Assembly: GCA_001661245.1 (NCBI GenBank)
Contig: KV454011.1
Location: forward strand, 2,406,987 to 2,470,986
DNA: 64,000 nt
Source of the DNA: Pachysolen tannophilus NRRL Y-2460
Taxonomy: Eukaryota
Reading direction: 5' to 3'
A program made the translations under genes and the position numbers. The stretch's first letter is position 1; each line of letters begins with the position of its first letter. Shown here in pieces: positions 10,006 to 64,000 of the stretch. The notes beneath the pieces are model-generated. The model was not told the origin of the DNA, made no database searches, and worked only from the letters and a program-made list of their open reading frames with translations.

Positions 10006-12768
10006 ATGGCAGATTCAGTTCTGAAACAATCTATATCGAGAACCAAGTTGTTACAAATTGCTAGTGATGAATTGAGTAAAAATATTGGTATTAATTCTAA
10101 CGGCGGTAATAATAATAATAGTAATAATAGTAATAATAGTAATAATAATACAAGTAGTGTTAATGGCGGTAGTTATCAAGATGATTATAATAGTAGTAAT
10201 AATAGTTTGAAGTTGGTTGATTTGAGTATAGCTTCTATACCGCCGGAGTTGATTGAGTTGATTAGAGAAAATCATTTGACAAAATTATCATTACAACAAA
10301 ATATGTTAACATCTTTACCAAATTATTTTAGTAGATTAGGTAATTTAAGATATCTTGATTTACATAGAAATAATTTTCAACATTTTCCATCAACTTTATG
10401 TTCATTTAAAAATTTGGAAATATTAGATATAAGTGAAAATTCAATTAAAAAATTACCATTAAATATAGGTAATCTTATTAGTTTAAAAGTTTTAAGTTTA
10501 AAAGATAATAAGTTGGAATATTTACCATCATCTATTTCTACAATGAAAAGTTTAAGAATATTAGAAGTTTCAAATAATCCTTTAATTCTGCCACCTTTAA
10601 ATTATATTCATGATTTACAAAGTGATTTATCAAGTAATTCAGATTGGTTGGATAATTTAAAATCATATATAAGAGATCATGGTAATTATTTGGATGCAAA
10701 GATAAAAGAAATTGATGATTTGGAAAATAATAGTGTACTGCAACCTCCACCTATGAAATTAGAAAGATCAAGAAGTAATTTGAATGATCCAGTGTCAGCT
10801 AAAGCTGCAAAGAGAATGGGATTCATCATTAAAAAGCTGAATAACCCAATGTCTAATCAAGAAATGGATCACGATGATGTAAATGACATTGTTGATGAAA
10901 CAAATATTAATGGTCATACAATTACCAATAATCATAATGGAACAGGTAATGATAATGAAAATAATAGTTCCAATCAAGAAGAATTTCTTAATGATTCTCA
11001 TTTTTCAGCAGTGGAACAACCAAGAGCGGTACAAGCATTAAATAATGATTATTCAGACATAGTGAGAACAAGTTCAACCTCTGCAATTCCACTCTTGAGA
11101 CCAAGATCTCAAAGTGCAGGAAGGAATGAAAATAGTAAATCTGTGGATAATTATGCAATTGCAGAAGATAATTTACAGCAGCAACAAAAATATGATGCTG
11201 AGCACAAGTCTTCTGCATATTTTAGAAGGTTATCTACTTTGGAAGAAATTAAAAAACCTAAAAATATTATAGTCATAAAAGTTGTTAGAAAATTATTATT
11301 TATTTTTACATCATTGCATTATAACGTAAATAAGATAAATGTTTTCAATTTGGATAAAAAATTATCGTTGAAAATAAATAATTGTTTAAATTTATCAAAA
11401 TCAAAACTTGATCTGTTGATTGAAAATTTAGAAATTTTAGAAAAAAATAATATTCATAGTTCCTATGATACTGATATATTGATTGATAAATTATTAACAT
11501 CAATAGTTTCATCTTTAAGCATTTTTAAAAATTTAATTAAAACAATTCAAGGAATAAATTTAACCAGAGTTTTAGATAATACCGATATTTGTTTTATAAG
11601 AAGTTTTTATTTAAATTGTTTTGGATCATTTATGGAATTATATAATTCCTATAAGATATTATATCCCGATTTGAATCCACAGCATCCTCAACCACCTCCA
11701 CATCTGAATGCAATCACTACGCCAACTCCATCACAATCCTTTTCTACAAATGTACCATCTTCAAATTCATCAGCACAATATCAGCAACCACCTCCATTAC
11801 GTATAGACACGGCATTGGCAAATCAACAAAGTGGTGGAGGCCAACCTCAAAGTGCGATAACGTCTTTTTCTACTCAACAAGTTAATGATGAACGATTATA
11901 TAATAGTGTTGATACTGCAACTAATTCTGCAAACTTTGTTTTCAGTCAATTGACATCATTACTTAATAAGACTGCATTAGAAAATGCAGTAACTACTTCT
12001 TCAACAGAGAATAATAATAATGTTAATGGTTCTTCAAAGTTGAATATATCGATTGTTAAAGAATTAACTAGTATTTCAGTTTCATCTATAGAAGCAACAA
12101 AAAATTTAAAAACTTCCTTGGCTACAATAACTTCACAACCACCAGCAGTTCAACCAACTCCATACCAGGAAAAACTTAAATTTTACAGGAACGTCAACAT
12201 TTTCTTGAAATCAATCATAAATGTTTTGAACACATCAAAAATTGCCATTAATGATTTACCAATATTGAATGAGATAAGGCCCAGTTTAGCGGCATTAACT
12301 AAGGCAACTAAGGATGTCACTTTGATGTTAGAAAATAGTTCCTTCAATAACATCACATTACAACAACAGCAGCAACCACAATCAAGTATTTCTGCTTTCC
12401 CTCCACCACTATCATCAATTCCATCAATGGCAATATTGCCAAATCAGCAACAAGTTACTACACCAATGATTGCAGCTTTGGGTAATGCAGCTGCAGCACT
12501 GACTGTTTTGCCACCTTCTGGGAACATTATTTCTAATGGTGCTAATAATGGTGTTCTTAGTCCTTCATCAGGGGCTGACTTGAGTAATAATAATAATAAT
12601 AATAACAACAACAACAACAATAATAATAATAATAGTAACAATAACAATGCTAACAATGCTAACAATGCTAATAATGCTAATAATGCTAATAATGCTAATA
12701 ATATTAATAATAATACTACTAATAATAATGGTAATAATAACGGTGCTGCTAATAATTTCGATGATTAG
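10006..12768 (+). CDS. SOG2: RAM-network leucine-rich-repeat protein Sog2
   Basis: First ATG at 10006. N-terminal LRRs (LRYLDLHRNNF, LEILDISENSI), then RSRS, KRMGFII and YFRRLSTLEE blocks and a helical C-terminal domain typical of Sog2. Confidence 0.85.
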   Translation: MADSVLKQSISRTKLLQIASDELSKNIGINSNGGNNNNSNNSNNSNNNTSSVNGGSYQDDYNSSNNSLKLVDLSIASIPPELIELIRENHLTKLSLQQNMLTSLPNYFSRLGNLRYLDLHRNNFQHFPSTLCSFKNLEILDISENSIKKLPLNIGNLISLKVLSLKDNKLEYLPSSISTMKSLRILEVSNNPLILPPLNYIHDLQSDLSSNSDWLDNLKSYIRDHGNYLDAKIKEIDDLENNSVLQPPPMKLERSRSNLNDPVSAKAAKRMGFIIKKLNNPMSNQEMDHDDVNDIVDETNINGHTITNNHNGTGNDNENNSSNQEEFLNDSHFSAVEQPRAVQALNNDYSDIVRTSSTSAIPLLRPRSQSAGRNENSKSVDNYAIAEDNLQQQQKYDAEHKSSAYFRRLSTLEEIKKPKNIIVIKVVRKLLFIFTSLHYNVNKINVFNLDKKLSLKINNCLNLSKSKLDLLIENLEILEKNNIHSSYDTDILIDKLLTSIVSSLSIFKNLIKTIQGINLTRVLDNTDICFIRSFYLNCFGSFMELYNSYKILYPDLNPQHPQPPPHLNAITTPTPSQSFSTNVPSSNSSAQYQQPPPLRIDTALANQQSGGGQPQSAITSFSTQQVNDERLYNSVDTATNSANFVFSQLTSLLNKTALENAVTTSSTENNNNVNGSSKLNISIVKELTSISVSSIEATKNLKTSLATITSQPPAVQPTPYQEKLKFYRNVNIFLKSIINVLNTSKIAINDLPILNEIRPSLAALTKATKDVTLMLENSSFNNITLQQQQQPQSSISAFPPPLSSIPSMAILPNQQQVTTPMIAALGNAAAALTVLPPSGNIISNGANNGVLSPSSGADLSNNNNNNNNNNNNNNNNSNNNNANNANNANNANNANNANNINNNTTNNNGNNNGAANNFDD
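12586..12740 (+). repeat. Coding microsatellite: (AAT/AAC)n poly-Asn and (GCTAAYAAT)n Ala-Asn-Asn repeats at the Sog2 C-terminus
   Basis: Direct reading of trinucleotide and 9-bp repeats. Confidence 0.9.
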
Positions 12769-12965
12769 GAAGAAGGAGACAAAAAGCTAAAAAAAGCTAA
12801 GAAAAAAAAAGAAAAAAAGAAAAAAGAGTTTCAATTTGAAAACATAATTAGTATTCTAAAAATTTATTAAATAGGCGGGTATATAGGTGGGTGTTATTAT
12901 GTATATGTATAAACTTTAGACAATAGAAATCCAGTTTTATAATTATCAATCTAGCTAGTGTTGAA

Positions 12966-13697
12966 TTATTTTTCAGCCATGAACAAATCGATTTCATCCA
13001 ATTCATCCTGGTTAACATAATGTTCAATCATATGGTATCTCGATTTACTGATTTTTTCAACTTTTTCATTCCAAAGACCACAAATTTTCATAGCTTCAAC
13101 GGGAGGAATTGTAATTCTTCCATTTTTGAAAACGTATTTTGTAATACAATTACAACAAGTCTTATATTGATTCTTACCAGTTGGGAAAGCAAATTTTGAC
13201 AAGACGAAAAGCCATTTTTCATCCCAGCATAAAACTTCACTTATAACATGATATCTCAGTAACGGTGTAATTTCTTTCTTAAAATTTCCCGAGAGAGTAG
13301 CAGTTGGAATATATGGCCAATTTAAAACTGAATATTTCCCTTTTTTACCTAAATTTACATCTTGAGCATGCCAAAATAATTCTCTAAATCTTAATGTCAT
13401 TAAATCTGCTCTGCATATATCCAATTCTTGAAAATAAGTTGAATTGGATTTATGTAGGTACGAATCACATTCAAAAAATGAACAAAAAGTCTTGTAAACT
13501 AAAGGATTGAAAACTTCTAATTCATGCTTCTTAATATCCTTAACTTTCAAATAAGATTTGGTATAATATGGTATAATCAAATTTTTCAAAATTGGACGAT
13601 AAAACCTAATTGTATATGCAAAAGGAACAGATTTATAAGATAAAATTGATATCAAGATGAAAACCCATTTTAAAATCCAAAACAGTAAAGCTAACAT
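12966..13697 (-). CDS. Thioesterase/hot-dog-fold protein, YBR096W-like
   Basis: ATG 13697, N-terminal hydrophobic anchor, ECDSYLHKSNSTYFQELDICR, FKKEI.P, WDEKWLFV, KYVFKNGRITIPP. Confidence 0.8.
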   Translation of the reverse strand: MLALLFWILKWVFILISILSYKSVPFAYTIRFYRPILKNLIIPYYTKSYLKVKDIKKHELEVFNPLVYKTFCSFFECDSYLHKSNSTYFQELDICRADLMTLRFRELFWHAQDVNLGKKGKYSVLNWPYIPTATLSGNFKKEITPLLRYHVISEVLCWDEKWLFVLSKFAFPTGKNQYKTCCNCITKYVFKNGRITIPPVEAMKICGLWNEKVEKISKSRYHMIEHYVNQDELDEIDLFMAEK

Positions 13698-14109
13698 TGA
13701 CTTTTGCAAAAATGACTTTCTCAACTCAAACCTCACCGGTGATTACTTTATAAAGATCTATAATTATAATTAGTATTAATTAAATAGATTACAACTATCC
13801 CTAGATTTAGTTCTAGTTCAAATTCAACAACAATTTGTATAAAAATTGGTATATTTCCACACCAGTAGATTTTTTATATACTATTAATGAATAAAGAAGG
13901 AATTCAATAAATTATAATTTAATAAGTAAAATGATAATAGTTGAAGTAAAAAAAAAAAGAACATATCATTTATTAGTTTAAAATTTCATTTATTAGTCTA
14001 GTATATAGTGTAGATCCCTTACAATTCTATATTGAATATAATAATAATAATATTAATAATAATATAATAAAATGAGCCTTTATCCTTTCTAAGTTGATGT
14101 TTTAATATT

Positions 14110-14931
14110 TTAATTTTGAATACCAGAGCATTCATTTGTACTTATATGATCTCTAATCCATTCATCTACATTTGAATAAATTTTACCACACAGTTTACAA
14201 TTTCCACTAACATGGTTTCTATTTTTTTTTTAGTTCCCAAGGGGTATTCGAAATGCAATGCTTTTAAATGATTTTTATAAGTATCACATCTTGAGAAACA
14301 ACCACTTGAATGACATATTTTAATATTTTGCTTTTCATCTGAAGTTGTTTCTTCATTTTTGTAAAAAGGACATTTAAATCCATATTCGCTTAAATCTTTT
14401 AAATGTGATTTTTCATGTCTTGTTAAATCATTTGGTCTTGCAAAACCTCTTGAACAAGTTTTACAAACATGAGGTCTTGCATTAACTGAAAGATGTGTTG
14501 ATTTATGTGTTGCCAAGTTACTAAAATATAATAAACATTGTGGACATTGTTTCTTCTTGCGTCTATTTTTCTGGATTTTACTCTGTTTTGACGGAAGATG
14601 CAGGAAGTGGTTCTGTTGTACAATAACTTGTTGGTACTGCTGTTGGTGCAAAGGTTTCTGATCTTGTGGTTCTAAATGTGACCTAAACCCACTTGCCAAT
14701 ACTAAAACAGCATTTGCATTTGCATTCGCATTCGCATTCGCATTTGCGTTTGTATTAGCATTTACATTCACATTAACATTAGCATTAGACTTTTCATATG
14801 TGATTGGATCACTACTACTTCTTGACCTACTTCCTTCATTATTATTATTATTATGATTATTATCTGAAGAAACTTCGTCTGCAGATGTGGGTGAATGTAG
14901 ATAATAGCTTTTACTGTTATTAGTCAATATA

Positions 14932-14963
<32 letters not shown>

Positions 14964-15506
14964 TTGTAGTTGTTGATATTGCTGATATTGTGATTGTGGT
15001 TGTGGTTGTGGTGGTTGCTGTGGTTGTTGTTGTTGTAAAGATCTAACTTTTGGGGATTGCGAGTATCCAAAACGAAATTCCTGAGCCCTTTTTTGATTAT
15101 CATAATATGGAACTATTGGTGGTGGTAAAGCACTGGATATTCCTTGAGTCCTCGAAGGATAATAATAATTTGACGATCCTGAAGGTACCGAAGCTGGTGG
15201 AGGTAACCTATATTTTTCATTCAACCCAGAACCTGGATGTTTATCAAGAACTTTCAACTTTGGTGGAGGCGCAAGATTTATAGAATTTGTAAAACTATTA
15301 AAAGTTGGTAAACGAAACTTATTATCAGCACTTGAACTAGTTGTTGGTTGAGGTAATAGAGCTATTGCTGGTGGTGATACTTGTGTTCCTCCCAGGGCCA
15401 GGGAAATGGGTATGGCTGAATTAGTACCATTATTCGTATTAACGTTGACACAACCACTCCCTTGAGTGCTGGAAGTATCTCTTTTCTGTTCAATCATAAT
15501 CATCAT
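14110..15506 (-). CDS. STP3: Stp3/Stp4-like C2H2 zinc-finger transcription factor (apparent 1-nt frameshift near the 3' end)
   Basis: CPQC..FSNLATHKSTH, RPHVCKTCSRGFARPNDLTRHEKSH, FSRCDTYKNHLKALHFEYP.GTKKK. The conserved tail continues in another frame to the stop at 14110. Position next to ELO3-ROM2-ARC18 matches S. cerevisiae STP3. Confidence 0.82.
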
Positions 15507-16614
15507 TTAAAACTATTTTTCTTTTTTTTTATAATTTCATCTTATAACTTCACTTTATTTGTGATTTTATCTTTTAAAATAAAGCAAATATAGATAAAAT
15601 CTCAACTTATTCTTTCAAATAATAACTGTTTAATCGCATTGGGCTAACTCTATTAACAGCAGAAATACCTTCAAGGAATCGCACGGCTAGTAAAAGCCTG
15701 CAAGTTAATATGCGAGTTGATGCATAAAACTTAAACTTTTTTTTTTTTCGCTCGGGAAGGCAGAAGAAGGTATTAAAGATTGGGAAGAGGTATATATTTA
15801 ATACCCAAAGATATAAAATGATTTAAATTTTATTTGACATCCACGGATACCGAAAAAGAATCTTTTAATTAGTATTTCTATGATCTAGAGAAGGTTCTGA
15901 TTATGACCCCATTTTTTATAAATAAAATAAAAAAAAAAATGACGGAAATGTGTATACGAAAGAATTCATTTATAAGATGCCATGTTTTTCTTGCCGTATT
16001 TAAATTTTTATTTTAACCGAGAAAATGGTAAAATCGGAAAGCGGCACAGCTTAAAATTTTAAAACAACCGCAAAATAAAACTACAAAAAAACAAAAAAAA
16101 AAAGAATGAAAATGAACGTGAAGGTTATTGAACAACCGTGGCGATAATGACACGGCGATCTTGAAGAGTTTGAAATGAGGAAATATTTTTATTGGAAAAA
16201 GCGGCTGTACTATAGTGTTTACAATTTCTTATTGTATGTATAGTACATGGCTATACAAATACATAATAATAATAATAATAATAAATACACTTATTTTATA
16301 CTATTAGTGGTACTAATCTGACTACAATAGTATTATACTTATATTATTACTACTACTATTAACTTTTAAAATTCGCATATATATAATAAAGACATAAAAG
16401 AAAAGAAAAATGAAAAAAAAAAAAAAAATACATATGTATATATTTATGAGAAATCAAAATGAAAAAAAAAAAAAAAAAAGAAAAAATGGAATATTTTGAA
16501 TCTATATGATTAAAAGATACTTAACTTTTTTTTTTTTCTTTTTTCAAATTTTTTCAAATTTTTTATTTTAGAAAATGACCAACCACTTTTTGGTTTATTT
16601 ATTTATTTATTTAT

Positions 16615-17621
16615 TTATGCTTTTCTTGAAGTTGGTTTTGTGATTTTTGGAATGGAAACACCAGTTGCTGAAATTGAAGCAACTTCTTCTTCAACTAATT
16701 TTTTTGCAGCTTTTTTACCTTTCTTCATATAAACTTTAATGTAAAAACTTATAAATAAGACCAAATATGAAGATAAGATCAAGTAACCATAAGCTGCAGC
16801 ACCTTCGGTACCATGACAAGTACCTTTATTTGGTAACCATTGGAAATATTTATCAGCATAAAAAGTATAAGTAGCAAAATAAACAAAAATTAAATCCAAT
16901 ATAAATTGAATAATTTGAAATCTTGTTACCCATTCTTTCCACCAAACTCTAACACCTCTAGATGATAAGAAATAGTACCAATACATAACCACATGAACAG
17001 CCAAGTTTAAAGAGATTGGAACCCATTCAACTGTTGTATGGCCTGCTAATTGTGTATAACATAATAAAGCAGTAGCACCATGATGATAAGTATGCAAAAA
17101 TAATAATTTTTTCCTTTTTAAAACAAGGAAAACTGTATCAATTAATTCAATATATTTTGTAAGATAATTCAAATAATATAAAGTAACCAACTTTGAAGTA
17201 TAAGCATCTCTTGAACAAATAGAATATAATATTCCATTTTTAACAACCATTGGAATCAATTGTTCCAACATTAATATTAATAAGATAAGTGAAACACAAG
17301 TTAAAAATAAATTATGTAATTGAAATAAAAAATTCAATTTTAAAGCTGGAATATTAAAAGTATTAACAATCAGTCTACCTCCAAATACAACAGAATAATA
17401 AACAATAATCGCACAAACAACTTCTGGGAAACTACCCATAAATGTTTCATTCCATACAAATTTAAATTCTTCAGCACTATAACCTTTAACCAAATAAAAA
17501 AAATGGTTGAAAATAGGCCATAATTTTAAACCAAACGGATTATCATCTCGTATAGATGGAGCAGAATACTGGATCCATTCAGGAAAAACTTCCACAATGC
17601 TCGAAATGCTTGAAACTCCAT
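16615..17621 (-). CDS. ELO3: Very-long-chain fatty acid elongase Elo3/Sur4 (start codon unresolved)
   Basis: [65 protein letters not shown]-terminal SRKA. No in-frame ATG upstream of the conserved N-terminus; the nearest ATG (17621) is 1 nt out of frame. Confidence 0.92.
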
Positions 17622-18705
17622 AAATATATGTTTTGGTTGAAATAGAAAATATAATATATCTTATTAGACTGGGAAGAGGAAAAGATTAAAAATTAAAAAT
17701 AATAAAAAAAAAAAAAAAAAAGAAATAAGAAAAAGAAAAATAAAAAAAAAAATAAAAAGTTTAATAAAACGAGAGAGAGAATTATTATCAATGTCATTTT
17801 CAAATAAGAAAGAAGAACAAAGAAAAAAAAAAAAAAAAAAAAACAGAAAAAGTGAAAGGACTTCCTCTCTAAATAAATAAAATAATATTAAAAAAAATAG
17901 TTGAAAATTTTCTGTATTCTTTTATTTACCTTTTTGAAAAAAATTTTTTTTTTTTTTCAACTCTTTTTTTGAGAAAGTTTTGTTGATTTTAACAAAACAA
18001 AAATCTTTTATTAATGACACTTTGATTTGTAGTTTCCTGAGTAGATGGATAAGATATTAACAGATCATTTTTTAAATAAAAAGCTTGAATGAGATTTGTA
18101 GTTATCGTAATTGAGGTAAATTCTTTGAGTTGATTGTTGATTGTTGTTTGTAGTATTTGTCGGCTCCACCATTTTTTTTTTGTATTGCTAAGTGTGAGCA
18201 ATATGGAAATGATGGGAAAAACAAAACGTGACACTTTACACCATCCGATCGCGCCCTTGGAAATCCGAGATTGGTTATTAAGATGAGTTAAAAAGTAGAT
18301 TATAAAATCTTTTTAAGTTAAATAATTATGTTTTTAGTCTACGAATGTTTTTCTGTTATGTATAACTTTTAACTTTTCCCTTTATATTTATATATAATAT
18401 CTCCCATGATTCTTATCGCCCATTAAATGGAAAAACAAGATAAAAATAAAACAAAAAAAAAAAAAAAAAAAAACAGCTAAATGATGATAACGAATGGAGG
18501 AAATAAAATGGTAATGTAATACATGACTAAATAATTAAAACAACAAAATTAGAAAGTTAAAAAAAAAATAAAAATAAAAAATAAAAAATAAAACATATAC
18601 GAATAAATATATATATGTAATGACACCCTTAAATTAATTAAATTATGCGTAAAAGGACAACAACAACAACAACAACAACGAGAAAAAAAAATAATTTGAT
18701 ATTCG

Positions 18706-21700
18706 TTATTTGGCACTTGGTTCATCTGAATTATTGTTAGTAGCAGTAGTAGTAGTACTAGTAGTAGTAGTAGTAGTATTATTTTTTTTAATAGATTTAT
18801 CCCAGAAATCCAAACTAACTACAACGTCATATCCTTTTTCATCTTCATAAGCGTACAAAATTTCCTGAGATGACCTATGCAAAAACCTAATATTTTCACC
18901 ATAAATGATTCGTAATAAATCTCCAGTTTCCACATGCCTAATTTCTATAAAAGAGGAATCGAAACCTAATAAGTAAGGATACCAAATTGCAAAATCTTGT
19001 GGTAAACCTTCCCAATTGATCAAAAATTGAGGTCTGGATCTCCAACCATTACCGTTAACATAAAATGAAAAATCTGAATAACTTAATAAAAAATAAGAAT
19101 TAATTCTATCAATTTCCAATGGTTTAAGTCCTTCTTTACCAATGACAAAATCTAAAGATGTATCTGCAGGATCCAATAATAATTCCATTTTATTTTCTTC
19201 AATAGAAACTATTTCAAAACCTTTAGTACAACCAACACATAATCTGGAATTAATAAAAGATATAGAAACAGGTTCAGAACTGAAAACAATCTCTTTTGTT
19301 TCATTTTTAAATTTCCTCTTATTTAATTTCTTTTGCTGAATTGGATCTATTGGTTCAAACACTTTAATTATATGGTTTGATCCATTTTTGGCAGCACAAA
19401 CCAACATTCTACCATTACAAATACCAACTCTGAAAAATGAAACATGAGATATTAATTCTTTACCTATTTTTGCATTTTTAAATGGATCTATAGTAGTTTG
19501 TGATAAAATCTCTAATGGCCATGTAAGCAATTTCTTATCAGTTAATACTAAAAACGTTTGATATCCTTCCAAAACTTCCAATTGCATGACATTTATTTTA
19601 CTTATAATTTTAATAGGTTTTGAAACAATTCTCTTGCCTTGATCTGATTTCTTGATCTCAGATAGATAAATTCCAGAATCGGTACCATACAATAATTTTC
19701 TACCACCATCAAATGGAACAACACAATTAATCTTGTTGCTATAGTCAAAAAACTTTTGACATAACGGCGTAAAAGTGAAAACATCATTGGCTTCAATCAA
19801 TTTTTTATGTTGCAGTTCAATTTTTTCAATTAATGTTTTTTGAATCGATAACTTCGGAGCATATAAAGTTAAATAATCACCTTTTCTTCCCAAGTATGAA
19901 AAAGTAACAGGAAATTTGTTTGAGTTACTATTACCATTGTTAAGTGAGGTACTACTAGACATTAATATACTTGGAGGCGATGACGCTACTAATGAAGAGG
20001 CAGATGATAAAGCAGAAATTTGCATCAGCGATGATCTCTTCATCATAGTTTTCAAATTTGGAACTTCTTCGGTAACAGACAAAAGCAATAATTGTAAAGG
20101 AATTGGTCTTTGGTAAACACGATGTTGTTCTCTCTTATTAACAATCTTAATCTTAACAAACAATAAGGCATGATCAAATAAATAAGCTTGAACTTCACCT
20201 TGATTTTCTTTGTCCTGATAATTACGTTTTTTCAAGACACAATGATACAAGATCCTTCTATTTGGAGTAGTCAATTTAAGATCAACAAATTCACCAGGTC
20301 TGAATTGAAGTTTTTGTTTCAACAAAATTAATTGGTATCTATCTGATGATTTACCAGTCTCAATGTTAATTCTATCTAATAATTTTTGTAATAGAGCCAA
20401 AGCTTTGTTCAAATTTTCATAGTCCGGTGAATCTTCCCTTGTATGATCCCTAATAGCTTTTAACAATAAAGGATATCTAGCAGGCCTAGAAGTTGGCTTT
20501 GACAAAAAAGATGATAAATCCAATCTCCTGGATTCTTTCAATCTCTCAGTCTCTTCAACAAATCTAGCAAACAACGGGTTTGTTGTCTTTTGCCTTTCAA
20601 ATTCATATTTGCCAAAAATTTGACCAGCACCATAATAAACAAAAGGCTCAAAATGTGGGATATACTGTAAAAAAATATCACCTATTTGATCAACGATAGA
20701 TTTTTTGTTTTGTCTTCTCGTTAATGCCGCTGCCAATTTACCGTTTACTGCCAAGATCTCATTAACTCCACTAAATACGGTTTTAATAAATTTTTCACGT
20801 TCTCTTTCTGGAATAATATTACTTTCTCGCAAGGGCCTAATCCAAAAATCCCTAATATATTCTAAATCTTTGACAAAATCACGCTCAGTATAAATAGTTT
20901 CAAAAATTGATTCTTGTCTTTTCAATTCCCTCTTATCAACACTTTCCAAGACAGACTTTGGAACAGAATAAGACCATAAATGCTTCTTTTCATCATTTTC
21001 ATGCAATGATATATGTGTATCATTTCTTCTTAGTCCTCCTTGTGGTTTTAAATTCAATCTTGCCTGTTGCTCCAATCTTCTTGGGCAAGCAATACTATAA
21101 CATAATCTATCTCTTGTACAAGTTGGGGAATAGCATTCCGTTAACAATGTGAAAACTCCATTAACGAGTATATCCTGTTGATTTAGGAGAGCACTACTAC
21201 CATTATTAACTTGTTGATTAATAGATGCAGATGAGGGTAACTGATGAATTGTTGATGAAACAGATGGTGATTCTAGCATGCTTGCATTATTTAATGTATT
21301 TTCGCTATTAAACGAGTTACGTTTATTACCGTTGAGGTTAGTTTGAGTACCATTACCTGTATTATTCTGATTGAAAAACGTAAAATCATTAAATTGGTAA
21401 ACTTCATTGTTGCTGTCCCTTAATCTGTGTTCATATGTAACGTCATGGAAAAATTTCTGGGCATCAAGAGCTCTTCCTAATAGCAAAGCTAAATTTCTAT
21501 CAGAAGTTCGAATAATGTGTGAAATGATATCAACAGCTTCTGAACCTGAAAATGCATCTCTATATTCCAATCCATTTTTCAATTTTGAACCTAAAACTAT
21601 ACGTTCCTTGAATAACCTAGCAACTCTTGATAAAAGAGCCGGATATACTGAAGGTCTTCTTGAGGATGAAGTGAAAACAGTCTTGGATGTCAATGAAGAG

Positions 21701-22917: not shown

Positions 22918-23755
22918 TTCCTCAATAATAATAGTGATGATTTATGATCAAAGTTTTATTTTTCTTTCTTTCTTTCTTTCCAAAAAAATACCCCCAGTTA
23001 TTACCCAAGAGCACAAGAAATAACTTCCTCCTCTTTTACACCAATAAGAAAAAAATTCACCTTGATGAAATTCACAACTTTCCTTTTTGTATTAATAACT
23101 TCTTCTTCTTTTTATAAAGATTTGTATCCTTATCCTCCTAATAAATTTTTTCTTGCCCAATATACTTCTTGCTTTTTTTTTTTTTTTGGTGGCTTTCCCC
23201 TTATCCACCGTTTTGACTGAATCCTTTTTCTTTTTTTTTTTTTATCTTTTTTTCTTTTATCTTCTGTAACTCAAGCTCTTTTATTCTTCTCTAGAAAGCA
23301 ATCTCGATATATAATAGAAGCAATCTTGACTATATAAGCAATAATATTACACTTGATTGATGAATTGTATAAATAGATTTATGTCTTCAAAACTATACGG
23401 AAAGATTGGGTTTCGAATGGATTAAGCGCTGTTAATATTTTTAGATTGATCAAGATTTGGTTCGCGCCGACACGACCAAAACAATTTTAATAAAAATATT
23501 ACGAAGCAGTTTGGAGTTTATGTAATATATGATTTACTCTCCACTGAGGTCAAGAGCTGTTATAGAAATGTAGGTTACAAGAGCGGGTTTATAACTCAGT
23601 AAACGCTACACATTGAACTAAAGCGCCATTAATTCTGACTGGTTCAAACTGTACCGCCAATTGAATTTGATATTGTTACTGCCTATGTTAATAGATAATT
23701 TAAGGCAAAAAAGTGTTGTGCGATATGTGCACTACCTGTGAAATGGAACCAAGTC

Positions 23756-23794
<39 letters not shown>

Positions 23795-23866
23795 GTATAA
23801 TTAATTAATTAACTGATTAATTAATTAATAAGAAATCATTTGGAAGATCAATTAATTTTATTAGCG

Positions 23867-24486: not shown

Positions 24487-24791
24487 ATTGATGTTTACGT
24501 TTACGTTTAGTTAGAAATTTATTTTTTTGTTTTTGTATATGTTGAACAATAGCAATATTGATATATATTGATGTATATATATATATATATAAATAATTTT
24601 ATATTGTAGTTATATGTAATACTTATCTCTCTTTTTCAAAATGGAAAACAATAAAAACCAAAAATGTAATGATAACAATAATAATAATAATAAAAAAAAA
24701 AAAACACAAAAATACAGTTATATAAAAATTGAATGTAATATATAGATTGATAAGAGAACAGCTTCACAAATTCGTGTTAGATGATTGATGT

Positions 24792-34801: not shown

Positions 34802-34891
34802 TAAAATATGTATAAAACTATTGATTTTTTACCCTGAATTTTTTTACACTACAGTAGTTTTTGCTGTCTCCGTATTATAGATATATTGAAT

Positions 34892-43948: not shown

Positions 43949-43979
<31 letters not shown>

Positions 43980-44096
43980 ACCTTTATGGGTTTGGTTGGG
44001 TGAAAAATTTATTGTAACCAAGTTAAATATTAATAAAAAAGTTTTATATTTTTATTTTAAAGATAGCGTTAAAGAACAAATTCTAAACTATAGAAG

Positions 44097-47911: not shown

Positions 47912-48028
47912 ATTTTATTCTAATTTTTTTATTACTTGTTCTCAAAATATATAGTGTGAAAAAGAGATACTTTTTTATGTGTACTTTTAGTGTTAAAATA
48001 AAATGGTGGTTATATTGTAAATTAACTT

Positions 48029-50860: not shown

Positions 50861-51027
50861 CCTCTTTTAAAACTACTAATATATAATTAAATATATATAT
50901 ATATATAACTTGTTTTGATATTGATTTCAATTTCAATAGTATATTTTATATTGAGAAAGATAATAAACCAAAAACGTAAATAAAAAATACAAAAAATGGA
51001 GCTGTACACAATTACCTAAATAGGAAG

Positions 51028-53859: not shown

Positions 53860-54056
53860 CACTTTTAAATATATGGTCAGTAAACTAGCTAATCCTCAAT
53901 TTAATAGGAAGTTTGTATGTTTTCAACTTTTTTTTATTTTTTATTTTTTTATTATTTTTTTAATATAATTTAAATAAAAATAAAAATAAAATTTTTAAAA
54001 ATCTTTTCAAATATCACAAATTTAAGAGTAATAGATCAAGAAATAAATCAAGAAAA

Positions 54057-54362
54057 ATGTCATCAAGTATACCTGTGAAGTTATTGTATGAATCACAAGG
54101 ACATGTGGTATCTATAGAATTGAATAATGGGAATATTTACAGAGGCAAGCTTATAGATTGTGAAGATAATATGAACTTGTCTTTGAAAAATATTGTATTA
54201 ACAGAATCTAATGGCAATATAAGTCACTTAGATCATTGTTTTATAAGAGGATCCATGATCAAGTTTATATCCATTCCGGAGATATTGAAGAATGCTCCAA
54301 TGTTCAATAAAAATTTGGTTAAACCAAATGCTCCTATTAGAAATTTACCAAGAAGGAAGTAA
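54057..54362 (+). CDS. SMD3: Sm core protein D3
   Basis: IPVKLL.E.QGH.VS.EL..G..YRGKL...EDNMN, FIRGS.IKF...P..LKNAPMF. Confidence 0.95.
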   Translation: MSSSIPVKLLYESQGHVVSIELNNGNIYRGKLIDCEDNMNLSLKNIVLTESNGNISHLDHCFIRGSMIKFISIPEILKNAPMFNKNLVKPNAPIRNLPRRK

Positions 54363-54533
54363 TTATAAATTAGTAAAGTTTTTTACTTTTAAGTTGGAGA
54401 TGTGTATATGTTGATGTGTTTAATACTAAAATTAGTTTTCATATTTTAATGGATATGCTTTAGTTTCATATATATATATATATATATATTTAGAATAAAA
54501 ATAAATAAGAATTTTAAACAATTTATGTATTTT

Positions 54534-56108
54534 TTAATCAACTACATCAGCTGTATTAACAAAATCTGCAGGTTCATCAGTATGTTTAACTTCCTGATCA
54601 ACATCAACAATCTTATCTTCTATACTGGAATTCCCCTTTATTTCATTTTTCAAGTTTTCAAATTCTTGTTCATTTTCTAATACATCAACGCTAATAACTC
54701 CAGCTTCATTAATTAAATCTAAGATACGTTCCAGCTCATCAATTTTAATTTTTTCAAAAACTTTATTAACTTCATCTATTGATTGAGTGGCCAAGGCTTT
54801 TTTAAAGTCTTCTGGTAATTGATTATAAATTTTATATCTTTCAGGATCCTCTTCTTTTGAAGGAATATTAACCGATAAAACAGTGTTATCATCTGTTGAT
54901 CTCAATTGAATAAGTTCTTCTGCTTCTTCATTTCCATCTTCTTCTCCTCTTTTCTTTTCCTCTTCTTTAATTATCTTACATCTTTTCTTAATGTGATCAT
55001 AAGTAAAGGCAATTTCTTGTTCAAATGCTTTAGCTGCTGGATGAGCTTTATTACCTATTCTATCAAAAAAATTATGAATTGCGCTAACTTTCACATCTTT
55101 GTCTGATATTTGTTTTGTTAAATCATCTAAAAATTTCAACATCATTGCCTTATAAACAATATCATATGCTTTAGCAGAATCATCTTTCAATTCAAAGTCA
55201 AATGCTGTCATTAATAATGAATCTTTCTGTTGTTCAGAAATTATGTACAAATGCTTGATCAAATATTGATAAAGTTTATCCATTTGTTTTATTTTAGAGT
55301 ATTCTTCAGTTTCTTGTAATAATTCCAACTCCCCTAATTCATTAAGAGGTTTTGAAGGTTTAGCTTCTTGATGATGATGATGATGTTGGTGATGATTTTG
55401 ATGTTGAGAGTTTTCATTCGACAAATTTTTGCCATTAGCGGCAGGAGAATTAATGGTTTCAATTGTTTCAATTTTTTCAGTTTTCTTAGCCGAATTATTA
55501 TTGATAATCTTCTTATTCTGATCCTCATCATCCTCATCTTCATCATCTCTATTAATAAAAGTGGAGCTGAAACCTTCTTTCAAATCAGAAATTTCTATAT
55601 GTGAATTTTTTTCTGCAATTAATTCTTTTAACCTTGCGTCTTGTTTTACAACCAATTCATCAATTTTTTTCTTATGTTTTGACAACAAGTCTCTCAAATG
55701 TAAATCATTAACTTCAACCTTATCCTTCTCAAGGTCACCTCTCAATTGTAAGATCAAATCCTCAATCTGCTCATTATACGGAATCAATTCTTCTTTACTA
55801 CTATCAATTAATTCGCTTTGTAATACTTCATTTTTATCAAACTTTGAATTTAAAAAATTAATGAAATCTGTATTATTTGAAAGATCAAACCCTTTATCAG
55901 CCAATATCGCATCAACACGCCTATTTAAATGCCCATACATTTCTTTTTGAATTGTAATATTCTTGATCTCATGGTTTCTTCTTTCTCTTTTCTCATGAAT
56001 ATCTCTTTGTTTCCATCTAATAAAAGATTTCTTATCAACATTTGGATGAACCTCAACATCGGAATCATCCGAAATCTCTATATTTTCAAACCTCGAATAA
56101 TCAATCAT
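54534..56108 (-). CDS. CDC37: Hsp90 co-chaperone Cdc37
   Basis: MIDYSRFENIEISDDSDVEVHPNVDKKSFIRWKQRDIHEKR N-terminal signature with the CK2 site. Confidence 0.96.
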   Translation of the reverse strand: MIDYSRFENIEISDDSDVEVHPNVDKKSFIRWKQRDIHEKRERRNHEIKNITIQKEMYGHLNRRVDAILADKGFDLSNNTDFINFLNSKFDKNEVLQSELIDSSKEELIPYNEQIEDLILQLRGDLEKDKVEVNDLHLRDLLSKHKKKIDELVVKQDARLKELIAEKNSHIEISDLKEGFSSTFINRDDEDEDDEDQNKKIINNNSAKKTEKIETIETINSPAANGKNLSNENSQHQNHHQHHHHHQEAKPSKPLNELGELELLQETEEYSKIKQMDKLYQYLIKHLYIISEQQKDSLLMTAFDFELKDDSAKAYDIVYKAMMLKFLDDLTKQISDKDVKVSAIHNFFDRIGNKAHPAAKAFEQEIAFTYDHIKKRCKIIKEEEKKRGEEDGNEEAEELIQLRSTDDNTVLSVNIPSKEEDPERYKIYNQLPEDFKKALATQSIDEVNKVFEKIKIDELERILDLINEAGVISVDVLENEQEFENLKNEIKGNSSIEDKIVDVDQEVKHTDEPADFVNTADVVD

Positions 56109-56391
56109 AACTAAACCTAAACTTGAGCAATTCTTAGCTTATTCTTCCATGGGCGCTTAAACAACAATTCCATATATCTAGATATATATATATATATTAT
56201 TATACATAAAACCTATGAATTCTTCTAGAAATAAAATTGAAAATGATACAAAAAGAAGTATCGTGTCAATAGGGAAAGAAAAAAAATCACGAAATTGACA
56301 GATTTGGAATTTTGGAATGTTTTGTCACTTTCGCACGACCATTATGTTTTTTTTTCATTGGAAAGCTGACGAGCATGGTCCATGACAATAT

Positions 56392-56424
<33 letters not shown>

Positions 56425-56474
56425 TCGAAAGGTGGATAGATAGATATCTTATAGATATCTTGGTTTTATTGATT

Positions 56475-56672
56475 ATGAGTGACTCAGTCAGTTCAGAAAA
56501 GATGGATGTAGAGGAGCCGGTGATTGAAGATTCTGGGAAAAGTGGAAATGTTGCTCAAGTAGGAGTACCATTAGGTGAAGATAAGGAAGAAGAAGTAGAA
56601 GAAGAAGAAGAAGATGATGAATTTAACGATAATCAGGAATCGACAATAAATGATGGCAATAATAATAATAAT

Positions 56673-56709
<37 letters not shown>

Positions 56710-57338
56710 GCAACAAGGGTGGTGATGGTATTAATAATTTGCTGGGGAGTAGGATTACGATTCCGGAATTACCTGAGCTTACTAGAAAGGACAAGACTTT
56801 ACAAGAGCTTTTATCAATGATGGACGAGTACTCGCCCATTATACCAGATGCTGTTACTGACTATTTATTAGCTAAGAATGGACTATTGACTAATGATTTA
56901 CAGGTGAAAAGATTACTAGCATTAGCAACTCAAAAATTTGTTAGTGATATTGCTCAGGACGCATATGAATACTCGAGAATAAGATCAAACACGGTTTCCA
57001 AATTGAAAAATAATTTGAATAATCCAAACAGTGGATTGCAGCCACCTGTATCATCCCAAAATGCCAATACTGGTGCTATGGGAACGCCTTCAGGTCCTGG
57101 AGGTTCAGGTGCAGGAAGTAATTTTGGACCTGGTGCAGGGGGTCCTGGTGGTGCAGGTGGTAGTGGTGCAGGTGCAAGTGGTGGTGCGGGGGGTTTTCTG
57201 AATTCAAGTACTGGTACAGGTGCTGGTGGAGGAAGTGCTGTACTCACTAATGAAAAAGTCACCTTAACTATGGACGATTTATCAAGTGCTTTAGAAGAAT
57301 ATGGTGTAAATATTAAAAGACCAAATTTTTACCGTTAA
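56475..57338 (+). CDS. TAF10: TFIID/SAGA subunit Taf10
   Basis: ATG 56475. [67 protein letters not shown]; poly-N and Gly-rich insertions. Confidence 0.95.
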
Positions 57339-57704
57339 TTAATTTATCTAGCAGAAAAACCGCAACAAGAAAGTTTCTTTCTTTTCAATCAATGTATTAT
57401 AAAAATAAATTCCTTTTTCTTTTCTTTTTTTTTTTATTTTTGTTTATTGCAAAATGTAAGATAATTTTAAATTAACTATCAACTATTATATTAGTAGTAT
57501 ATCTGTATAAATAGCTAGTTGCTATTGTATTGTTTTGTATTTCTTAATCTGAGGTCAATTTTAGTCAAAATATAGTGAAAATTTATCATTTAGAAAAAAA
57601 TCCACAATTTTCAACGACTTAGCTTATTTGCTTTTACATATAAGATAATGCAAAGATTGAATTTGTAAGCAAAACAAAAAAAAAAAAACAAAAAGCACAG
57701 TGTA

Positions 57705-59195
57705 ATGATTAATAGTTTGATATCTAGTAATCAAAGTAGAATAACTAGTAAATTATCGTTATTAGCAAGACAATTATCATCAACTTCTCTGAAAAAAATG
57801 GCTCCAATTGACAAAACTCACTTCAATTATTTGGTTATCGGTGGTGGATCTGGAGGAGTTGCTTCTGCTAGAAGAGCTGCTTCTTATGGAGCAAAAGTAT
57901 TGTTAATTGAGTCCAAAGCTATGGGTGGAACTTGTGTTAATGTTGGATGCGTTCCAAAGAAAGTTATGTGGTATGCTTCTGATTTAGCCGGTAGAATTGC
58001 TCAGGCAAAAGAATATGGTTTTAATGTTGATCCACAAGCTGCGAAAACTTTTGATTGGGGTTATTTTAAACCAAAGAGAGATGCTTATATTGAAAGATTA
58101 AATGGTATTTATGAAAGAAATTTGACTAAAGAAGGTGTTGAATATATATATGGATTTGCCAAGTTTAACGACAAAGGTACAGTTGATGTTGTTACAAAAG
58201 ATACTAATGAAACATTAACTTTTTCTGCTGATAATTACTTGATTGCCACTGGAGGTCATCCAATTTTTCCTGAAAATATTCCAGGTTATGAATATGGTAT
58301 TGATTCGGATGGATTTTTCAAGTTATCGAAACAACCAAAGAAAGTTGCTCTTGTAGGAGCTGGTTATATTGGTATTGAACTTGCTGGTGTTTTCCAAGGC
58401 CTTGGTTCAGAAACTCATCTTGTTATAAGAGGTGAGACTGTACTTAGATCGTTTGATGAAATAATTCAACATACTATAACTGACCATTACGAAAAAATTG
58501 GAATCAATGTTCATAAGCAATCGCAAGTTGTTAAAGTTGAAAAAATTAAAGATGATTTTTTAAAAGTTCATTTAAATAATGGTGAAATATTAGAAGTTGA
58601 AGCTTTAATTTGGACAATTGGTAGAAAATCTTTAAGTGGCATTGGTTTGGATAAGATTGGTGTCAAATTAAATGACAAGGAACAAGTTGAAGTAAATGAA
58701 TGGCAAGAAACTAATGTTCCAAACGTTTACTCTTTAGGTGACGTTGTTGGTAAAGTCGAATTGACACCTGTAGCCATTGCCACAGGTAGAAAATTGAGTA
58801 ATAGGCTTTTTGGACCTGAAGTTTATGCTAAACAAAAGCAAGATTTCAATAACGTACCTTCTGTTGTTTTCAGTCATCCAGAAGCTGGATCAATTGGTCT
58901 CTCTGAAAAAGAAGCTATTGAAAAATATGGTGAGTCGAACTTGAAAATTTATAGATCAAAATTCACTGCAATGTACTACGCAATGTTATCACATAAAGCT
59001 CCAACTTCATATAAATTGATTTGTCTCAAAACTGAAAATGAAAGAGTTATAGGCTTACACATTGTTGGTGACTCTAGTGCTGAAATCTTACAAGGATTTG
59101 GTGTTGCCATTAAAATGGGTGCAACAAAAGCAGATTTCGACAACTGTGTAGCCATTCATCCAACAAGTGCCGAAGAATTGGTTACCCTAGTATAA
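57705..59195 (+). CDS. GLR1: Glutathione reductase (mitochondrial and cytosolic isoforms likely)
   Basis: [21 protein letters not shown] redox disulfide, [18 protein letters not shown]. Second in-frame ATG at 57798. Confidence 0.97.
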
Positions 59196-59427
59196 TATTA
59201 ATAGATATATAGTTATAACTACGTTATATAGACTTCTTCTCAACTGACTGTACTTTCAATTTTTCACTACCAAAAAAGAATGAAATAAAAAAAAAATTAA
59301 ATTGAAAAATTTTCTGTGTATGAATCATACATAATAATAAATACCGCCAAACTTGGGGTTATAAAATATAATTGTGTAATCAGTTGTTATTTTAAAAAAT
59401 TAATAATTAAAGTCAATAATTTTGGAA

Positions 59428-60321
59428 ATGACGAGTCTACTAATAAAGTCATCGTTGGGTAGGTCATCTAATAAGGTACTAGCAGTATCGAAACGTTTTT
59501 CATCTTCGTCGACGTCTGCATTGGCTTACAAACAATTACATAGGAATAGATCAAGACCATCATTACCAACTTTGGATGCTCCACTGTGGTCTGCAAATTC
59601 TGCTGTTTCTTCTATTCTTTATGAATCGCCGGTTCAAAGTAAAGCACCTAAGACTCAGCATATTTTGAACTGTCTTGTTCAAAATGAACCAGGTGTGCTA
59701 TCTTTGATATCTGGGACACTAGCAGCAAGAGGTTTTAACATTGATTCGTTGGTTGTTTGCAACACAGAAGTTAAAGATTTGTCCCGGATGACAATTACAC
59801 TTGATGGCCATGATGCTGTTATTGAGCAAGCAAGAAGACAGATTGAAGATTTGGTGCCAGTTTATGCAGTATTGGATTATACCAATTCTGAAATCATTAA
59901 AAGAGAATTATTATTGGCTAGAGTCTCGATATTAGGTCCTGAATATTTCCAAGAATTGATTGCTCATCATAATGAGGAACCATTAGTTTCGGTTGAGGAT
60001 TTGAAATTCCATCCAAGTAACTTGGCTCCATCGGAACTGTTGAGACAAAAACATTCTCATCTTGAATCTTTGTCAAGTTTAGCAAAACAATTTGGTGGTA
60101 AAATCGTTGATATTAGCGATAGAAGTTGCATTATTGAATTATCGGCTAAGCCTTCAAGAATAACCTCATTTGTAAAGTTGATTCAACCTTTTGGTATACT
60201 AGAGTTGGCTAGATCAGGTATGATGGCTTTGCCAAGAACACCATTGAAGGACTATGAGAACGAAGAAGTTGCTACGGAATCAAATGAAGAAGTTGATATT
60301 TCACAATTACCTCCAGGTTAA
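59428..60321 (+). CDS. ILV6: Acetolactate synthase regulatory subunit
   Basis: ATG 59428, presequence, then HILNCLVQNEPGVLS.ISGTLAARGFNIDSLVVCNTEVKDLSRMTI (ACT domain), ARSGMMALPRTP, SQLPPG. Confidence 0.96.
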   Translation: MTSLLIKSSLGRSSNKVLAVSKRFSSSSTSALAYKQLHRNRSRPSLPTLDAPLWSANSAVSSILYESPVQSKAPKTQHILNCLVQNEPGVLSLISGTLAARGFNIDSLVVCNTEVKDLSRMTITLDGHDAVIEQARRQIEDLVPVYAVLDYTNSEIIKRELLLARVSILGPEYFQELIAHHNEEPLVSVEDLKFHPSNLAPSELLRQKHSHLESLSSLAKQFGGKIVDISDRSCIIELSAKPSRITSFVKLIQPFGILELARSGMMALPRTPLKDYENEEVATESNEEVDISQLPPG

Positions 60322-60568
60322 TCGAATTCGAAATCGAAATCTAAATCGAAATCTTTTTCCTTTGATGAAGATTTAATTTAATTTTTTCCTCTTTTGTGTT
60401 TTTTTACTTTGGTTAGTCAATTAATTTTATTTTTTGGCCTTTTTTATATATACATTTTTTTTTTATACTTTTTATCGATTGTTTTATCATCAACACAATT
60501 AAGTTATATAAACATTATTTCAATGACAAAATCCGAGTAGGCAAGCAAAAAAAGAAAAAGAAAAAAAC

Positions 60569-61471
60569 CTAATTACTAAAATCATCTTCTGTAGGTGGAA
60601 CATAAGGAGGAGGTTTGAAAAATTCTTGATCTTGTAAGACCAATTTTTTGAAACTATCTTTATCATCAACAAATTCGTACAAATACTCCAACTCTAAATC
60701 ATGAACCTGTCTCCCTAACATTATCAAACTATGCAAAGGCTCACCAGCATCATAATTACTTAATTCTTTTAAGGAGCCAGCTTTAAAAGACTGGGTTGGA
60801 GCTCCCAATCTTGATATAGCAACACAAGGCGTAGCTTCTGTATATGCTTGTTCCTTTCTCAAGCTTTCAATTTCTAATAACTGACTTGCTGCAGTGCTTA
60901 TATCCATATATCTTGGAGGTTCATAAATAAGTCTACCTCTTGCCATATTTTCAATACTTTGTTCCTTAACCTTGATATCCAATAAGATTAATGTATGTAA
61001 TCCAATTTTCCTATTTTCCATTATCTTATCGTAAAAACTATCTGGTCTCCAACTATCAGTAAAGAAAACCATTGAAACCGTCTGACCAAATTGATATAAT
61101 TGTAAACCACAAGCACCTACAGCATTCATAATACTAGCATTATGTATACATTCCACTTTTATTCCTAATTCTCTTGCTCTTATAATCAAATCCGTATGAG
61201 TAGTGGCACCAAAAGGATCACCAACAACCAAAAATGCAATATCCTCTGTATCTGCATCTTTTAACATCTCATCTGAACCGGTTTCCACAAGTTCTCGATC
61301 AGCTAGAATAACTTCTTTTCCATAAAAACTCTCCAAAGATTCTTTCGATGCCGCCATAAGAATCGACGTATAGGCCTCCAAATAAACCCTTTTACATTTT
61401 TTCACAGCCTGAAGACCCCTAACAGTTATATCAGTTTCATGAGATAATCCTAATCCAATTAAATACAACAT
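60569..61471 (-). CDS. DPH5: Diphthine methyl ester synthase
   Basis: ATG 61471. [58 protein letters not shown]. Confidence 0.97.
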
Positions 61472-61585
61472 GGTGATGACACTTATTACTCCCACCTGGT
61501 TGATTGTTCTTTCAATAAAGAGTCAAAATATAAATTACCTGAAAAAAAAAAAAAATAAAAAAATTTTTTTTAAAAAATTTTTTTT

Positions 61586-61701
61586 NNNNNNNNNNNNNNN
61601 NNNNNNNNNNNNNNNNNNNNNNNNNNNNNNNNNNNNNNNNNNNNNNNNNNNNNNNNNNNNNNNNNNNNNNNNNNNNNNNNNNNNNNNNNNNNNNNNNNNN
61701 N
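61586..61701. other. Assembly gap (116 N)
   Basis: Run of N. Confidence 0.99.
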
Positions 61702-62387
61702 TTCTCAAGCTTTCAATTTCTAATAACTGACTTGCTGCAGTGCTTATATCCATATATCTTGGAGGTTCATAAATAAGTCTACCTCTTGCCATATTTTCAA
61801 TACTTTGTTCCTTAACCTTGATATCCAATAAGATTAATGTATGTAATCCAATTTTCCTATTTTCCATTATCTTATCGTAAAAACTATCTGGTCTCCAACT
61901 ATCAGTAAAGAAAACCATTGAAACCGTCTGACCAAATTGATATAATTGTAAACCACAAGCACCTACAGCATTCATAATACTAGCATTATGTATACATTCC
62001 ACTTTTATTCCTAATTCTCTTGCTCTTATAATCAAATCCGTATGAGTAGTGGCACCAAAAGGATCACCAACAACCAAAAATGCAATATCCTCTGTATCTG
62101 CATCTTTTAACATCTCATCTGAACCGGTTTCCACAAGTTCTCGATCAGCTAGAATAACTTCTTTTCCATAAAAACTCTCCAAAGATTCTTTCGATGCCGC
62201 CATAAGAATCGACGTATAGGCCTCCAAATAAACCCTTTTACATTTTTTCACAGCCTGAAGACCCCTAACAGTTATATCAGTTTCATGAGATAATCCTAAT
62301 CCAATTAAATACAACATGGTGATGACACTTATTACTCCCACCTGGTTGATTGTTCTTTCAATAAAGAGTCAAAATATAAATTACCTG
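61702..62387 (-). repeat. Identical duplicate of the DPH5 5' part and upstream sequence (matches 60856-61541); probably an unmerged contig overlap
   Basis: Constant 846-bp offset, no differences seen by eye, abuts the N gap. Confidence 0.9.
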
Positions 62388-63444
62388 AAAAAAAAAAAAA
62401 AAATAAAAAAAAAAATTTTTTTTTTTTTTTTAAGTTTTCCGCTCTTTTCAACCGAAGTCGAAATCAACATTTTAAAAAGTAATTCATCTTTAAGATTCGG
62501 ATTCAAATGAGTGTTTTCAGTTGAACTATATGTGAATCAAAGTAACAGTAGTTATTGAATAAATACTCTTGAAACATTTCCTTAATTTCGAACAAGAATC
62601 ATTTTTAGTTGAATAATGGTTGATTTTTCTTATAATTATGTCTCTGCAGATGCTGTACTAAATGTTTTTTCAGCTTTTGTTGCTGACAAACTTTTCTTTA
62701 AATATTAAGCATTTGGTCTCGAATTTTATAACAACTCATTCAGTTATACAAAGCTATCTGAATAGTCTCTTACTAACAATCCATTGATTTTAGTTCCGTT
62801 TCTTCTGTTTGAATCGAGAATTTCATCATGTAAAAATGATAAATGTACTTTTTATCATAAAAATCCGCAGAAAATGCGGCTGTGATCTAATTAGCTTGTT
62901 CTCTGGTCTAGACTATTTTCTTTTGATAGATGGAGTTTGCAAGAATTAAAGCTTAGATGATATTATGATTATGAGTTGGAAAAGTTTAGCTTAAAAGTGG
63001 AAAGATAAAAACAGATAAAAAATGACAGAGCTAAAAAATGAATGAGGCAACTTTTATGATGTAAAAACTCAGAACAAGAAATTTAGCTTTAATTTGTAGG
63101 ATGAAACAAGAAACAGACGTTCAGATACAAACCAAATTTGAATTAATAGTTTGAAAGTAATTTCTATTTTTTCAATTGGACTGTTCTAGATCTACTAGAG
63201 CAACTAAGACCAATGATTCAACTCCATTTACTTACCTATAGATATGTATAGAAAGAAAGCAAAGAAAAGAAAGAAAAATAAAAAATAAAAAAGTAAAAGG
63301 ACACATAAAAGAAAACAATTTAACGATGAATAGTTTTTTTTTTTTTTTTTTTATTTTAAATAAAGTTAATTGTCATAATCTCAGAAACTTATTTTGAGTC
63401 TGATATTTTCTGAATCCGTAAAATTTGAATTTTTAAGATAGTAT

Positions 63445-64000
63445 TTAAGAATTTGAAGGAGCTTTTACCTGTGCAACGTTTATGCTTTTTGAGCCCCATT
63501 CTTTCAAGTTATCTAATAGCGTTCCTTTTTCATGCAACAGATGAATATCATCAGAACCACCACGTGAAACTCCGTTTATGACTAAATTTGGAACAGTTTT
63601 TCTACCTGTTATTTGAGCAATATATTTTTGTAAATCCAGGCCATTTTTATGTTTATCTAATTCAACAATTGTAGGTAAAGGTGTGATTTCATACTGTTTT
63701 TGTAACAAATTTTTCAAAGCTTTTGAATATGGACAATACGTCTTACTAAAAATCACTACTGGTGAAATCTTCAAAATACCCGTATATTCCTTTTCAGCAT
63801 TAAATTCAGAAGTAACTTCTCCTTCTTTATTATTAACCATATTCTTATTATCTACAAGTACATCATCACCACTCTGAGCAATTGGGCGAGATACTCCTAA
63901 TTTTTGACGTACTTCTTCTGCATCTTTAACTCTACTTTCATCAATTTCACCTTTCTCATTTTTAACAACTTCATTCAAATTCGAATTAACCTTTGGATTT
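63445..64000 (-). CDS. Monothiol glutaredoxin, Grx6/Grx7-like, 3' part (start lies beyond the right edge)
   Basis: SPVVIFSKTYCPYSK (CPYS active site), TGRKTVPNL.ING..RGG.DD. The frame stays open to the window edge, consistent with a long N-terminal extension. Confidence 0.88.
   Translation of the reverse strand, partial: NPKVNSNLNEVVKNEKGEIDESRVKDAEEVRQKLGVSRPIAQSGDDVLVDNKNMVNNKEGEVTSEFNAEKEYTGILKISPVVIFSKTYCPYSKALKNLLQKQYEITPLPTIVELDKHKNGLDLQKYIAQITGRKTVPNLVINGVSRGGSDDIHLLHEKGTLLDNLKEWGSKSINVAQVKAPSNS

Follow-up and report, generated by a model that had tools for sequence, protein, structure and literature searches.

The stretch of DNA analysed here (64,000 nucleotides of contig KV454011.1, positions 2,406,987 to 2,470,986, hereafter the window) is almost certainly nuclear DNA of the yeast Pachysolen tannophilus (Alaninales), in which every in-frame CTG codon is read as alanine via a tRNA-Ala(CAG). 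This assignment, translation table 26 of NCBI, is borne out by decoding of CTG from homologue profiles, by Pfam scores as compared to those for leucine, by the match of the window to its species and by published mass spectrometry. The reassignment is already known, in the species where it was first described, and biologically our result is a rediscovery of a 2016 finding; the first-pass annotation of the window, made from the DNA letters, was right to call this code an established one. For the nuclear code of P. tannophilus, Riley et al. 2016, a reference given in PMC11182611, is reportedly to be named beside Muhlhausen et al. 2016. That a sense-codon reassignment was recovered from 64 kb by reading alone makes the window a useful positive control. 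The conclusion of the first-pass annotation is, however, sounder than its argument, as the low-complexity contexts and homologue residues that it adduced are mostly not what carries it.

The window contains AT-rich genes of the budding-yeast type; wherever no Pfam or PDB match supplies a gene name, the name used here is a presumed one. In total, 73 in-frame CTG codons, all to be read as alanine, were found across 27 open reading frames (ORFs), 24 of which carry at least one. These codons span positions 1524..63639 (no strand assigned), and their frequency in the ORFs is 4.7 per 1000 codons. The CTG positions cited in the first-pass annotation proved to be in frame on the coding strand in all 12 cases checked.

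A Codetta-style decoding of each codon, as the first-pass annotation had proposed, was performed on 1784 profile columns from five genes in four homologue families. The homologue sets comprised 118 sequences for the Agp2-like amino-acid permease, 119 each for Ilv6 and the ammonium transporter (MEP), and 150 for the EamA transporters. CTG was masked as X in the queries for the Agp2-like permease, Ilv6 and the ammonium transporter; for EamA, the search was made with the second paralogue in its table-26 translation, and the informative EamA site sits in the first paralogue. Neither the homologue sets nor the profiles include the window's own records or the protein P0002 (947 aa). From 16 CTG codons in the five genes, 14 were aligned and 13 were kept after removal of one with low alignment confidence. 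Over these 13 columns, the posterior for CTG was 0.9988 for alanine, 0.0012 for valine, 7.6e-9 for leucine and 3.8e-11 for serine. All other codons observed (58/58; the aligned columns included no CGA or CGC) were decoded as in the standard code. Alanine always ranked first when single CTG columns were left out, with a minimum of 0.856. In random draws of 13 columns, an alanine call was obtained in 0 of 5000 draws from leucine columns and in 13 of 5000 draws from serine columns.

The alanine call is carried by three Ala-dominated columns. The strongest of these is residue 479 of the Agp2-like permease (31830..31832, minus strand), where 110 of 118 homologues have A, seven G and one V, and neither L nor S occurs. 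At residue 204 of Ilv6 (60037..60039, plus strand), A is present in 91, V in 20, L in 2 and S in none of the 119 homologues; the ILV6 gene itself (59428..60321, plus strand) was the source for both the profile decoding and a tree described below. In the first EamA transporter, the CTG at residue 309 (35652..35654, minus strand) is aligned to A in 87, G in 44, S in 4 and L in 2 of 150 homologues. Residue 459 of Cdc37 (54732..54734, minus strand) is clearly a fourth alanine site, the Pfam family CDC37_C scoring 73.2 bits with alanine, 70.0 with serine and 67.8 with leucine. For the Cdc37 C-terminus no match was obtained in PDB, and no Cdc37 relatives were found in a metagenome scan. The EamA-family paralogues are arranged in tandem (35310-38538, minus strand) and have no CTG position in common.

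According to the first-pass annotation, homologues often carry alanine or another small residue at the CTG sites that it cited. With regard to alanine, this holds for Ilv6-204 and EamA1-309, and fails at most of the sites cited. The Ilv6-53 column contains N in 62, S in 25, T in 13 and A in 7 of 119 homologues, and Mre11-95 is aligned to P, P, P, T and T in five PDB alignments among the matches listed. In PDB alignments, one CTG site of Grx faces E, E, R, S, A and the other K, K, Q, T, E, and Reb1-530 corresponds to E in the closest structure and mostly to E across the alignments. None of the conserved sites cited (Ilv6-53, Ilv6-204, EamA1-309, Mre11-95, the Grx sites and Reb1-530) is dominated by leucine. 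In the PDB search with Ilv6, one of the two closest matches has S and the other V, and Vps15-868 is K in both matches. The myosin search yielded six matches, and among the five listed only one aligned across the CTG site, with W.

Furthermore, 21 protein fragments were scored against Pfam under tables 1, 26 and 12, and the sums given here cover 14 family scores obtained with 13 of them. Matches that miss the CTG site (Vps15 WD40, myosin TH1, Tag1, Rua1, TAF10 and Ilv6) were kept out of the sums, as were the unstable Sog2 LRR matches and a thioesterase-like ORF with a single weak match for the serine form only. Alanine exceeded leucine by 14.7 bits over the 14 families (nine better, three worse, two tied), and by 13.3 bits in the ten families that are independent of the profile decoding. 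The Pfam scores thus reject leucine; they say little on alanine as opposed to serine, which they separate poorly.

The species is identified by the class I myosin gene (24792..28643, minus strand), which has five CTG codons. Barring these five sites, its product equals, over the full length by eye, the '>Pta' row of the concatenated alignment in FileS2 of PMC4986446; at the five sites this row has S, as does the table-12 translation with which it was compared. Codon usage of the window correlates with the P. tannophilus table (PMC5951914 Suppl. Data 3) at r 0.995, as compared to 0.90-0.93 for the three other species (N. wickerhamii, P. xylosa and P. kudriavzevii), and 24 of 26 genes fit P. tannophilus best among the four species. 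The top named homologues belong to Komagataella, Ogataea and Kuraishia, with 50-76% identity. In a single-gene Ilv6 tree of 39 out of 120 rows (the window protein, 28 named and 10 other rows), the window forms a branch of its own and does not group with the rows of the Pichiales, Serinales or Saccharomycetales, a placement that is not strongly supported.

In a public protein collection, the window's Agp2, Ilv6 and Mep proteins are present with alanine at 10 of 10 CTG sites, and Mre11, myosin and Rom2 are found in NCBI/UniRef as table-26 translations; for Mre11 and myosin, translations with table 1 or table 12 do not occur in the collection. Alanine in these records is how the deposit is annotated and not independent evidence of the code. 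GLR1 was sought there in its full-length form as translated with tables 26, 1 and 12 and was missing in each case, probably owing to a differing start; this negative is uninformative. The GLR1 gene (57705-59195, plus strand) has an N-terminal Ser/Arg-rich extension that resembles a mitochondrial presequence and carries the gene's only CTG (residue 29).

Some homologues in these sets have unusual leucines. The Ilv6 homologue P0125 has leucine at 3 of 15 Ala-conserved columns, the highest count among the 119 rows, as well as at the Ilv6-204 column, and is sister to the window protein in the Ilv6 tree (90/73). Judged by its sequence, P0125 is probably a CUG-Ala relative that was translated with the standard code. 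P0221, P0175, P0236 and P0111 have leucine at many Ser-conserved columns (9 of 20 in P0221), the pattern to be expected if proteins of CUG-Ser yeasts had entered the public collection in standard-code translation.

What the present analysis shows is which species the DNA comes from, that CTG decodes statistically as alanine, and how the public records are annotated; evidence on the tRNA-Ala(CAG) and on peptides was taken from papers. No tRNA(CAG) gene is located within the 64-kb window, the sole tRNA of which, a tRNA-Ser(GCT) (2035..2118, plus strand), is not a CUG decoder. A tRNA(CAG) with alanine identity has been described for P. tannophilus (PMC4937558). In the published mechanism, a tRNA-Ala gene with an anticodon mutated to CAG has retained the alanine identity elements G3:U70 and A73 and has no long variable arm; this tRNA is charged by alanyl-tRNA synthetase and reads CUG. 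The published accounts, as far as they were covered here, mention no tRNA-Leu(CAG) that would compete with it in the CUG-Ala clade. PMC4937558 proposes that tRNA-Leu(CAG) was lost and the codon then captured, and an ambiguous phase together with selection against tRNA-Leu(CAG) is favoured by the authors of PMC5951914. By proteomics, alanine was found at 97.2% of 907 ion-supported CUG positions (PMC4937558). In a second peptide data set, 243 of 256 CUG sites of P. tannophilus are alanine, 3 leucine and none serine (PMC5951914 Suppl. Table 1), and the corresponding counts for alanine are 134 of 137 sites for N. wickerhamii and 472 of 497 for P. xylosa (PMC5951914). The 73 codons of the window would all obey this genome-wide rule. 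The importance of this is practical only: genes of this genome need table 26, as otherwise about 5 residues per 1000 are wrong, and it should also be applied to whatever else is found in the genome.

Several results weigh against reading CTG as alanine. Without the three strongest columns the profile call becomes isoleucine (0.94, with alanine at 0.012), and the CTG signal from the window alone is thin. The column leader is alanine in 4, leucine in 2 and serine in 1 of the 13 CTG columns, whereas 64 of 93 GCN columns are led by alanine. Two sites are counter-examples: residue 257 of the ammonium transporter (8714..8716, minus strand) lies in a Leu-rich column with L in 61 and A in 13 of 119 homologues, and residue 268 of the second EamA transporter (37735..37737, minus strand) in a mixed, Leu-led one (L 43, A 18 and V 18 of 150). 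Alanine exceeds serine by 7.5 bits over the 14 Pfam families, being better in six, worse in five and tied in three. Residue context, assessed with a neighbour-residue classifier, gives no support for alanine with or without the Rom2 tracts. [quoted passage not shown]

A standard code, with CTG as leucine and substitutions being tolerated at the Ala-like sites, would suit the two Leu-led columns, the three of 14 Pfam families in which the leucine form has the top score, and contexts that are not Ala-like. We regard it as vanishingly improbable in view of the leucine posterior, the complete lack of leucine at Agp2-479 and the 3 leucines at 256 CUG sites in the published peptides (PMC5951914). 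Moreover, none of the 13 CTG columns has a leucine share above 50%, a mark that is passed in 116 of the 226 columns for the remaining leucine codons. Alanine exceeds 50% in three of the 13 columns and serine in none.

The assignment of CTG to serine (table 12, as in the CUG-Ser clades) was the first one made for Pachysolen, in 2014, and PMC4986446, which had assigned serine, translated the myosin CTG sites accordingly. Pfam scores of the serine form equal or surpass those of the alanine form in 8 of 14 families, and S is present in the Ilv6-53 column in the 25 homologues mentioned above. However, the posterior for serine is the lowest of the four given, no CTG column is more than 50% serine as opposed to three for alanine, the group behind it revised the assignment in 2016 on the strength of proteomics (PMC4937558), and the published peptides contradict it with serine at 0 of 256 CUG sites (PMC5951914). 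Serine is thus exceedingly improbable.

A further possibility is that CUG is mostly alanine with a functional minority incorporation of leucine, which would suit CTG columns rich in aliphatic residues. The share of L, M, V and I among non-Ala residues is 49% at the 13 CTG columns and 27% at the 93 GCN columns (permutation p 0.04), and the mass spectrometry data of PMC5951914 leave room for low levels of other residues. On the other hand, CUG was found to be as unambiguous as AUG (PMC4937558), and the mutational neighbourhood of CTG accounts for such columns without ambiguity. We therefore consider minority leucine incorporation very unlikely and retain a plain alanine reading.

The first-pass annotation had argued chiefly from Ala-type contexts of in-frame CTG codons. 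This argument did not rise above chance. The classifier, itself weak (282 of 649 true alanine sites called correctly), assigned 71 CTG sites to leucine in 29, alanine in 21 and serine in 21 cases. The mean Ala-minus-Leu score at CTG was -0.087, a value equalled or beaten by 99.9% of random sets of true alanine sites; as a set, the CTG sites are not Ala-like, and the striking examples cited were a matter of selection. Neighbour context was accordingly rejected as evidence for alanine. The CTG codons of the Rom2 poly-Gln tracts (22447..22581, minus strand; seven CTG amid CAG/CAA codons) and of the myosin tail were likewise rejected on account of low complexity. Those of Rom2 are unable to discriminate between codes because CAG to CTG is a single base change.

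The CTG-alanines of the window may be a non-random set of alanines. From CTG, one base change leads to Leu, Val, Met, Pro, Gln and Arg codons, and two or three are required to reach any GCN codon; many CTG-alanines should therefore arise via non-synonymous steps at tolerant positions. The reassigned codon could thus open one-step routes from Leu, Met, Gln or Arg to Ala that are absent from the standard code, with sites falling at aliphatic-tolerant columns and poly-Gln turning into Gln-Ala repeats as in Rom2, where CTG sits among CAG and CAA. We put this forward tentatively, as an idea somewhat more doubtful than probable; its support, the aliphatic excess given above, is one small test on 13 columns and suggestive only. 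Some CTG sites may be relics of the ancestral CUG-Leu. The mutational route would account for those sites that the first-pass annotation had noted as also fitting leucine. In PMC4937558, CUG was seen at weakly conserved positions and this was ascribed to random mutation; the idea of non-random CTG-alanines may already be in print. If true, it would mean that a code change leaves a measurable mark on proteome evolution.

As compared to known systems, no difference was found to the nuclear code of P. tannophilus (table 26; Muhlhausen et al. 2016, PMC4937558) in species, codon or residue. The same reassignment characterizes the CUG-Ala clade (Alaninales, Pachysolenaceae, with Pachysolen, Nakazawaea and Peterozyma; PMC5951914, PMC11182611), where CUG as alanine belongs to the diagnosis of the Alaninales and OG0016373 is a protein family specific to this order (PMC11182611). 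Within the clade, N. wickerhamii (r 0.93) and P. xylosa (r 0.90) fit the codon usage of the window less well than P. tannophilus, and CTG frequencies per 1000 codons are 11.0, 8.0 and 6.1, respectively, as compared to 4.7 in the window. In CUG-Ser1 (Serinales, table 12) and CUG-Ser2 (Ascoideales), CUG was likewise captured from leucine by an anticodon-mutated tRNA, but the residue is serine and the source tRNAs are others; the window Ilv6 lies outside the Serinales rows of the tree, a placement without strong support.

Four additional small or intron-bearing frames outside the 27 ORFs contain no CTG. Free of CTG are an RPS11 exon (44500-44922), an ARC18 exon (23959-24483), an SmD3-like gene (53964-54359) and a TMEM14-like gene (7568-7837), all on the plus strand and with presumed names, as well as an RNR1 fragment (1-588), DPH5 and a cupin gene (43074-43739). 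These CTG-free genes are consistent with avoidance of CTG in conserved or highly expressed genes.

DPH5 is present twice in tandem (60569-62423, minus strand). The segments 60856-61585 and 61702-62423 agree in 720 of 722 bases. A run of 116 N (61586-61701) cuts off the second copy; the repeat is probably an unmerged scaffold join and not a real duplication. A gene with the Pfam domain Rua1_C is also found in two copies on the plus strand (33848-34813 and 42010-42956), about 8.1 kb apart, with 934 of 947 aligned bases the same and a single N at 41746 just upstream of the second copy. This pair is either a recent duplication or an assembly artefact.

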